DNA of 64,000 nt from Schmidtea polychroa. Its lineage: Eukaryota. The notes beneath the pieces were generated by a model, which was not told where the DNA came from, did not search any database, and saw nothing but the letters and a program-made list of their open reading frames with translations. The stretch spans positions 19,408,001 to 19,472,000 of the forward strand of contig CM097885.1 of assembly GCA_044892525.1 (NCBI GenBank). The letters are read 5' to 3'. Position numbers and translations under genes: made by a program. Below, piece after piece: positions 60,620-61,057 of the stretch; position 1 is the stretch's first letter; the number at the start of each line of letters is the position of its first letter.

Positions 60620-61057
60620 TTAGAAATCGACCAATGAAATTATCTCATTTCGAACATTGTCAACAAATTCTCTATACTCCAAATTTCTCAACCCCAACAT
60701 GACAACCTTTCCACTAGCAAACACGTTGACACATATAGGGTTATATTTTAATAGTCTTAGTGCCGGAAACAATTCCGGTTCAAACATACAATCACATTTT
60801 TTCGACATGTTATATAGATTGATACTATGTCCCATATCCATAGTAACGGTAATTGATTGGATTATAATATTATTTATTCGATATTGTAATTTATTAATAT
60901 CCAAAGGTTTCTTACATCCCATGATTCGACATTTACCAGTCTTGAAAAATATTATCGGATATTTCCCGCTTCTATCGATAATTTGCTGGGGTTTCCCTGG
61001 TGGGAACCTCATATTCGATACATCAAAATTTCCTCGATAATTTATATTTGCTAACAT
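60620..61057 (-). CDS. TATA-box-binding protein (TBP)-like protein, 145 aa
   Basis: Two TBP-like repeats: LANIN...IIFFKTGKCRIMG and IIIQSITVTMD..INL..FEPELFPAL..P..VNVFASGKVVMLG. Confidence 0.88.
   Translation of the reverse strand: MLANINYRGNFDVSNMRFPPGKPQQIIDRSGKYPIIFFKTGKCRIMGCKKPLDINKLQYRINNIIIQSITVTMDMGHSINLYNMSKKCDCMFEPELFPALRLLKYNPICVNVFASGKVVMLGLRNLEYREFVDNVRNEIISLVDF

Follow-up and report, generated by a model that had tools for sequence, protein, structure and literature searches.

The window analyzed here, a 64,000-nucleotide stretch of the Schmidtea polychroa genome, raises the question of what a TATA-binding protein (TBP) does when it is encoded by a mobile element. A minimal TBP-like gene (vTBP) was found on the minus strand at positions 60620..61057; its ORF was intact from ATG to stop, intronless, and encoded 145 aa. 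The first-pass annotation, made from the sequence alone, had called this ORF a TBP, and the call held: the protein matched the Pfam TBP family (PF00352) with 55.1 bits against the curated cut-off of 22.9 (E 6.8e-15), and all 35 matches of a PDB sequence search were TBPs.

The vTBP gene resides in a Maverick/Polinton element, as had also been proposed. The left terminal inverted repeat, beginning with AGTAG, was located at 56428..56905 (plus strand) and it shared about 80% identity over 481 bp with the right end of the element, which lay 4.7 kb past the end of the window; the total copy length was 12.3 kb. A 6-bp target-site duplication (56422..56427) was repeated after the right end. Inverted repeats starting with AG and a 6-bp target duplication were present in the window copy and in another copy, designated C2; the two had the same gene core and different terminal sequences. 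The element ends carried dense tandem arrays of TGACTCA, presumably AP-1-like, with 22 copies in about 1 kb of the window (56500-57300); such arrays were also present at L027:6274-6600.

Accessory genes were encoded to the left of vTBP in a largely minus-strand region (57692..60548): orf167 (−), a Bcl-2-like exon (+), orf137 (−), and orf134 (−). The Bcl-2-like exon (near 58298-58603, plus strand; also L027:7648-7962) had a Pfam E value of 2e-4, below the cut-off. CCAAT and a TATA-type box preceded three of these genes (orf167, orf137, and the Bcl-2-like gene) in another copy. The product of orf137 was considered as a partner of vTBP; it had no match in Pfam or Atlas. The core genes, encoded on the plus strand to the right of vTBP, began with an A32-like packaging ATPase (61157..61783; Pfam Pox_A32, 29.1 bits against a cut-off of 22.8), followed by a basic conserved ORF (61802..62324), 177 aa long in other copies and split near its start here, and a retroviral-type integrase with a chromodomain, found as two ORFs in the window copy (62386..63498; rve E 1.4e-5, below the cut-off, plus the chromodomain). 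An ATT microsatellite was observed within the integrase frame in several copies (window 62770-62870; L028:2277-2420), possibly in a small intron. The start of a 357-aa conserved ORF, which we take to be PZ-like, occupied 63453..64000. Beyond the window, we found the rest of this ORF, a 122-aa ORF, a double jelly-roll capsid gene, and an adenain-type protease (Pfam Peptidase_C5, above the cut-off). The capsid profile gave 0 matches to PDB sequences, and the identity of the protein rests on its fold: the model of the 407-aa protein (pLDDT 77) superposed on the PBCV-1 double jelly-roll capsid with Z 27.1 and an rmsd of 3.1 Å over 343 residues. In L021 (about 2700-3600), the protease was followed by a small, AT-rich gene that showed intron-like breaks and had acidic exons; a similar one was present in the C2 copy.

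A polymerase gene was absent between the ends of the window copy, and its PZ-like and capsid genes were split over several frames; the vTBP and ATPase ORFs were intact. The window copy is thus a non-autonomous or decayed Maverick. Long polymerase ORFs were encoded in other copies and relatives, as judged by motif matches and a PHROG DNA polymerase match (E 4.8e-20 for L042); Pfam DNA_pol_B_2 had no match on the parts of these ORFs that were scanned. The terminal repeats, the 6-bp target duplication, the integrase, ATPase, protease, double jelly-roll capsid, and, in other copies and relatives, a putative family B polymerase are shared with Mavericks, Polintons, and adintoviruses as described in the available parts of PMC8502044 and PMC8097293.

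The AlphaFold model of vTBP, built from 93 relatives, had a pLDDT of 96.4 and a pTM of 0.85. It superposed on human, yeast, and archaeal TBP with Z 13.4 and an rmsd of 2.4 Å over 143 residues covering both lobes, with the best non-TBP structure match at Z 6.6; the two-lobed saddle fold, with 143–145 residues aligned over both lobes, is thereby established, and the absence of a TBP fold, which the first-pass annotation had allowed for, no longer comes into question. Lobe 2 of the model was complete. In lobe 1, the strands were kept and both long helices were gone: two segments measured 14 and 19 residues against 25 and 32–33 in 9/9 cellular TBPs, the segment of 19 residues being G47-Q67. The noted lack of an N-terminal extension was borne out by the superposition, as residue 1 of vTBP aligned to residue 160–164 of human TBP. 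The alignments also agreed with what had been read from the sequence of the two repeats. Repeat 2 carried the E93-P94-E95 stirrup and both phenylalanines (F97 and F113), and the shortened repeat 1 kept one (F38), with P23 at the first Phe position.

The vTBP family proved wide, and it has undergone heavy amplification in this genome. The scored genome matches to the vTBP protein were 99–100% identical and stop-free in 150/150 cases; these were the best 150 of 4165 first-look candidates, so the figure is biased to intact copies and is not a copy number. Another 20 loci of the genome represented at least five more vTBP subfamilies at 53–63% identity. Among candidates from the protein collection, 108/116 were relatives, and a profile search at E ≤ 1e-30 gave 61 clusters (50% identity). 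Relatives also sit in Mavericks from other samples: a homologue of the ATPase, integrase, capsid, protease, or polymerase was encoded in 36/80 metagenome loci (the best 80 of 175 matches) and in 18/21 of those at least 4 kb long. Capsid and ATPase queries had no match in scans of viral contigs, and a scan with the TBP profile retrieved one unrelated large-virus contig only (L035).

The host genome encoded an intron-containing TBP and five TBP-like paralogues (L116-L121). In a tree of 96 rows, the vTBP family formed an established separate clade of 83 rows (support 100/100), 34 of which were database proteins without genomic context, apart from the host TBP, its five paralogues, and cellular TBPs; the grouping of vTBP with host TBP was rejected by the AU test (p 1e-7). 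Pairwise dN/dS values for unsaturated vTBP pairs at 58–91% identity were 0.08–0.39 (among 215 non-independent pairs), which establishes purifying selection; near-identical copy pairs were left out because they hold too few changes (dN/dS 0–1.0). TBP and ATPase identities covaried across 33 loci (rho 0.85; 0/500 permutations). The notion that vTBP is a recently captured host TBP retrocopy, carried along as a functionless passenger, would agree with its intronless ORF and very many near-identical copies, but it is refuted by the tree, the AU test, and dN/dS values well under 1, and the six subfamilies at 53–63% identity in this genome also speak against it; we regard its chance as negligible. 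Thus, vTBP is a real, selected, element-encoded minimal two-lobed TBP.

The arrangement of vTBP and the ATPase head-to-head was confirmed for the window, where the two ORFs are 99 bp apart, and for 20/20 further loci of this genome. It did not hold in general, as vTBP and the ATPase shared a strand in 24 metagenome loci and had opposite orientations in 2. With 2/26 outside loci in this orientation, a conserved head-to-head TBP–ATPase linkage is ruled out, and the layout is local to the subfamilies of this genome.

The intergenic region between the two genes contained two different promoter-like sequences. A canonical TATA-type sequence (61083..61093, minus strand), placed about 35 bp ahead of the vTBP ORF, is a putative early-type promoter for host TBP. 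On the opposite strand, a YATAAAC(A) box was found in non-coding DNA (61124..61131, plus strand), 33 bp ahead of the ATPase ORF. The same box preceded the basic ORF (61769..61776, plus strand), and two more boxes (62241 and 62320; 62241..62327, plus strand) lay upstream of the integrase region.

The box was recovered by an unbiased ranking of 6-mers in 90-bp upstream regions of dereplicated genes, the loci still being related by descent. The top-ranked 6-mer, ATAAAC, was present in 42/44 ATPase and capsid upstream regions, compared with a mean of 4.0 and a maximum of 10 in 200 shuffles. YATAAAC(A) was mostly located 32–46 bp before the ATG, typically at about 35 bp. It preceded 30/32 dereplicated ATPase genes, 4/4 dereplicated homologues of the basic ORF (orf177), and the ATPase in 29/29 near-identical copies with the start located (30 loci examined). 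For other core genes, the frequency was 11/18 (integrase), 9/14 (PZ-like), 2/8 (orf122), and 0/1 (protease). Upstream of vTBP genes it was found in 4/66 cases; a canonical TATA was present in 25/50 confident vTBP starts. An initiator-like TCA word followed the TATA by 22–36 nt in 22/25 vTBP promoters and followed the box in 6/46 cases. The base after YATAAA was C in 40/44 core-gene matches and in 0/16 vTBP-gene matches. Both elements had the same spacing to the ATG, with a mode of about −36. Two classes of upstream sequence within the same elements are thereby established.

In 15 longer loci, the box occurred 132 times in the sense orientation (that of the core-gene strand) versus 15 in antisense, and 81 occurrences were near a start versus 20 expected. 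The ATPase box was non-coding in 21/30 cases; the capsid box lay within an upstream ORF in 8/12, and 8/46 boxes overlapped a stop codon, so that some of the conservation may reflect coding constraint. In the long-form clade (L103), to which the 4/66 box-bearing vTBP genes belong, the box also preceded some accessory genes; a strict "late-only" assignment is, therefore, too simple.

Mavericks without vTBP were analyzed for comparison. Family B (L148-L156), a Maverick of this genome examined in three copies, is TBP-less, with best vTBP profile E values of 0.04–0.06; none of the three copies had a box at TATA distance, and in two of them the word stood 9 bp ahead of where the ATPase was called to start. 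Family B is about 15 kb long and young in this genome (98/98 scored capsid ORFs were 99–100% identical), and, in place of the box, a T-rich word directly preceding the ATG is common to its genes. Three loci with the same gene order and without vTBP (L158-L160) had the box before none of their ORFs; L157, found by the same search, contained both vTBP and the box. These controls amount to about three independent lineages, of which L158-L160 are partial and GC-richer (51–56%) and family B is only distantly related. A genome search with the ATPase of a TBP-less relative yielded no added control, since its best matches had 39–41% identity and several already lay beside vTBP. By its distribution, vTBP appears to come with a co-inherited variant TATA box.

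Plant-assay data in the available part of PMC10005294 put the activity of TATAAACG at 27% of that of TATAAATA; as a TATA box for cellular TBP, TATAAAC works, though weakly. A G–C Hoogsteen pair has been reported in the TBP complex 1QN3, according to the accessible portion of PMC8643651. In the alignment of 82 family rows, F38, F113, E95, R44, M46, and N111 were invariant, and F97 (81 rows), P23 (80 rows), and Ser/Thr68 (81 rows) were nearly so; E93 was found in 72 rows, with Asp in 6 more. Three of the four intercalating phenylalanines were thus kept (F38, F97, F113), the first being Pro in 80/82 rows. Cellular TBPs at the same positions mostly have Phe 23, Val 44, Thr 46, Asn 68, and Leu 111. 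We take these positions to be F99, V122, T124, N159, and L205 of yeast TBP, which presumably face the DNA minor groove; with new residues nearly invariant at such positions, the DNA face of vTBP looks remodeled and fixed. The Hoogsteen pair is presumably that of the C(−25) TATA variant, and the C at box position 7 would, we assume, sit under the altered lobe 1 of vTBP.

Both acidic TFIIB-contact residues of the C-lobe stirrup were retained in the family. The N-lobe helix H2 with its basic patch was absent from the vTBP model; in the available text of PMC7221094, this patch is assigned to contacts with TFIIA, TAF1, Mot1, and Brf1. Long forms of the family (165–170 aa; L083, L088, L093, L103, and others) kept most of lobe 1. 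The minimal form was a nested clade (support 96/97), and its lobe-1 reduction therefore looks derived. No TFIIB-like ORF was found by tblastn with two TFIIB queries in 104 loci and the full C2 copy, most of the loci being partial and remote homologues being able to escape such a search. The predicted complex of vTBP with TFIIB scored 0.51 versus 0.00 for the best control, with contacts at least 88% alike between runs and a partner pLDDT of 86; the partner came from a related source and was 92% identical to a host exon. On the benchmark, the mark was reached by 51/78 solved pairs and 2/108 mismatched pairs; at scores of 0.60 or below, the passes were 5 solved pairs plus every one of the 4 mismatches that passed, so that passes in this range are more often wrong unless the pair was likely beforehand. 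The complex gives weak support and may reflect resemblance to solved TBP–TFIIB structures. Intronless TFIIB-like genes about 304 codons long also occurred in clusters in the host genome (matches on C1 and C3).

We propose that vTBP is probably a one-gene late-transcription switch of the Maverick that reads YATAAAC(A). The accessory genes and vTBP itself would be transcribed by host TBP from ordinary TATA promoters, often composed of CCAAT, TATA, and an initiator. The vTBP protein would then bind, through its altered DNA face (P23, R44, M46, S68, N111), the YATAAAC(A) that lies about 35 bp ahead of core genes such as those for the ATPase and the capsid, and it would recruit host TFIIB and Pol II via the conserved E93/E95 stirrup. 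Having lost the basic lobe-1 helix, it would escape control by TFIIA, TAF1, Mot1/BTAF1, and Brf1. The first-pass annotation had offered two functions, a promoter-selectivity factor redirecting host Pol II/TFIIB to element promoters or a dominant-negative decoy; selectivity now has a candidate target in YATAAAC(A), and the decoy leaves both the box and the DNA-face residues unexplained. As a decoy, vTBP would titrate host TFIIB or block host TATA promoters and so damp host transcription, the box being unrelated. The kept TFIIB-contacting Glu pair and the lost TFIIA and TAF1 surfaces would suit this function; a co-inherited box at TATA distance and invariant new DNA-facing residues are not expected from it, and we hold it to be improbable.

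The box itself could be read in other ways. If it were a weak TATA recognized by host TBP or a paralogue, vTBP would only boost general transcription of the element, or serve as a backup for it, without a specificity of its own. The partial activity of TATAAAC with cellular TBP, the five extra TBP-like genes of the host, and the box before accessory genes in L103 favor such a reading. It does not account for the cytosine at position 7 in 40/44 core-gene matches versus 0/16 vTBP-promoter matches of the same elements, for the missing box in Mavericks that have no TBP, one of which is active in this genome, or for the invariant non-cellular residues on the DNA face of vTBP, and we consider it rather unlikely. 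Alternatively, the box may not be a −30 element at all: it could serve a helper-virus polymerase as an initiator, or else be a variant polyadenylation word or some RNA signal, with vTBP acting elsewhere. Initiator-type words are known from poxviruses (TAAAT) and baculoviruses (TAAG), virophage-like elements use helper-virus promoters as far as the consulted part of the literature goes, and 8/46 boxes overlap an upstream stop codon. Yet the ATPase box was present even without a preceding same-strand gene, as in the window copy, in the C2 copy AATAAA and no box was found at the 3′ end of the core array, and the box–ATG spacing equaled that of the canonical TATA in vTBP promoters; only a slim chance is left to this explanation. 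We accordingly keep to a late switch as the probable function of vTBP, with one reservation about its selectivity: EBV BcRF1 did not distinguish TATA and TATT in vitro (PMC4893493, in the part available), and the selectivity of vTBP may likewise need a partner.

One locus that had been selected as a TBP-less control (L161) was dropped, as the rest of its contig encoded a different TBP and a TFIIB-like gene. This Maverick (L161/L179, G003:C86) contained homologues of the integrase, capsid, protease, and polymerase. Its TBP was 189 aa long (L179:3475-4041, minus strand; Pfam 44 bits) and was directly followed by a 252-aa TFIIB-like ORF (L179:2777-3532, minus strand; Pfam TFIIB 27.2 against 23.6; zinc ribbon E 3e-5). 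The protein had neither the signature residues of the vTBP family nor the EPE stirrup, and it was placed outside that family on a long branch of the tree; no YATAAAC box was found upstream of the ATPase and capsid genes of L179. The pair is possibly a second, orthogonal TBP–TFIIB acquisition by Mavericks. For the combined picture—an early-to-late cascade run by a single stripped 145-aa TBP with YATAAAC specificity, use of host TFIIB, and escape from TFIIA, TAF1, and Mot1, alongside a second Maverick lineage with a separately acquired TBP-plus-TFIIB pair—we put the odds slightly better than even.

Compared with cellular and archaeal TBPs (PF00352; 7egb_P, 1ytb, 1c9b, 2z8u), vTBP shares the saddle fold, three of the four phenylalanines, and the EPE stirrup. 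It differs in being only about 24% identical, in lacking both long lobe-1 helices and the N-terminal tail, and in being encoded by a mobile element; on the DNA face, the first Phe is replaced by Pro, and Val, Thr, Asn, and Leu are replaced by Arg, Met, Ser/Thr, and Asn.

The TBP-like proteins of beta- and gamma-herpesviruses (EBV BcRF1, KSHV ORF24, HCMV UL87) offer a parallel in function. Judging from the available parts of PMC4893493 and PMC12529657, they combine a viral TBP-like protein with a variant TATA on capsid-type genes, and the use of host Pol II and a polar-rich DNA interface are further shared features, predicted from sequence on the Maverick side. The herpesvirus proteins are large, multidomain, and part of a six-protein complex, they are about 10–12% identical to the Maverick protein, and their promoter word is TATT instead of YATAAAC. 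According to the same portion of PMC12529657, they are incompatible with direct TFIIB binding, whereas the Maverick vTBP keeps the TFIIB stirrup. vTBP would thus work like the herpesvirus vTBP–TATT system by functional analogy and is not a member of it. The TBP-like proteins of NCLDVs and mirusviruses are likewise virus-encoded and two-lobed and have lost the lobe-1 regulatory patch; according to the accessible text of PMC7221094, their TFIIB-contacting Glu residues are about 40% conserved and they usually bring their own TFIIB, which makes the retention of both Glu in the vTBP family unusual among viral TBPs. In BFVD, vTBP had 23 matches at E ≤ 0.001.

The conserved genes of vertebrate Mavericks do not include TBP, and the word "TATA" is absent from the main texts of PMC8097293, PMC11161782, and PMC10748475; the main text of bioRxiv 2026.06.19.733378 contains neither TATA nor TBP. 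The one prior mention found in the open literature on Polintons or Mavericks with TBP, TFIID, or late promoters (subscription papers and Repbase notes being outside the scope) is a figure-legend label "TBP" on maps of MELD virus (PMC8502044, Starrett et al., section 3.4). In the available part of that paper, no family, mechanism, or promoter accompanies the label, and its supplement text contains neither TBP nor TATA.

A dedicated factor that reads a private promoter word would provide Mavericks with a late phase, and how they time capsid expression, and whether they still live as viruses, could then be tested with a single small protein plus a reporter. If the proposed switch is real, the single-vTBP cascade would rank as the smallest orthogonal core-promoter system in nature. 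vTBP would then be a natural TBP specificity mutant, pointing to the residues that read position 7 of the TATA box, and vTBP with its box would be a candidate orthogonal promoter–factor pair for eukaryotic synthetic biology. Finally, in the subfamilies L128-L147, the ATPases were 94–97% identical but the vTBPs only 54–60%, and all kept the box; this contrast in the sequences suggests either an exchange of modules at the vTBP–ATPase junction or fast change of vTBP.
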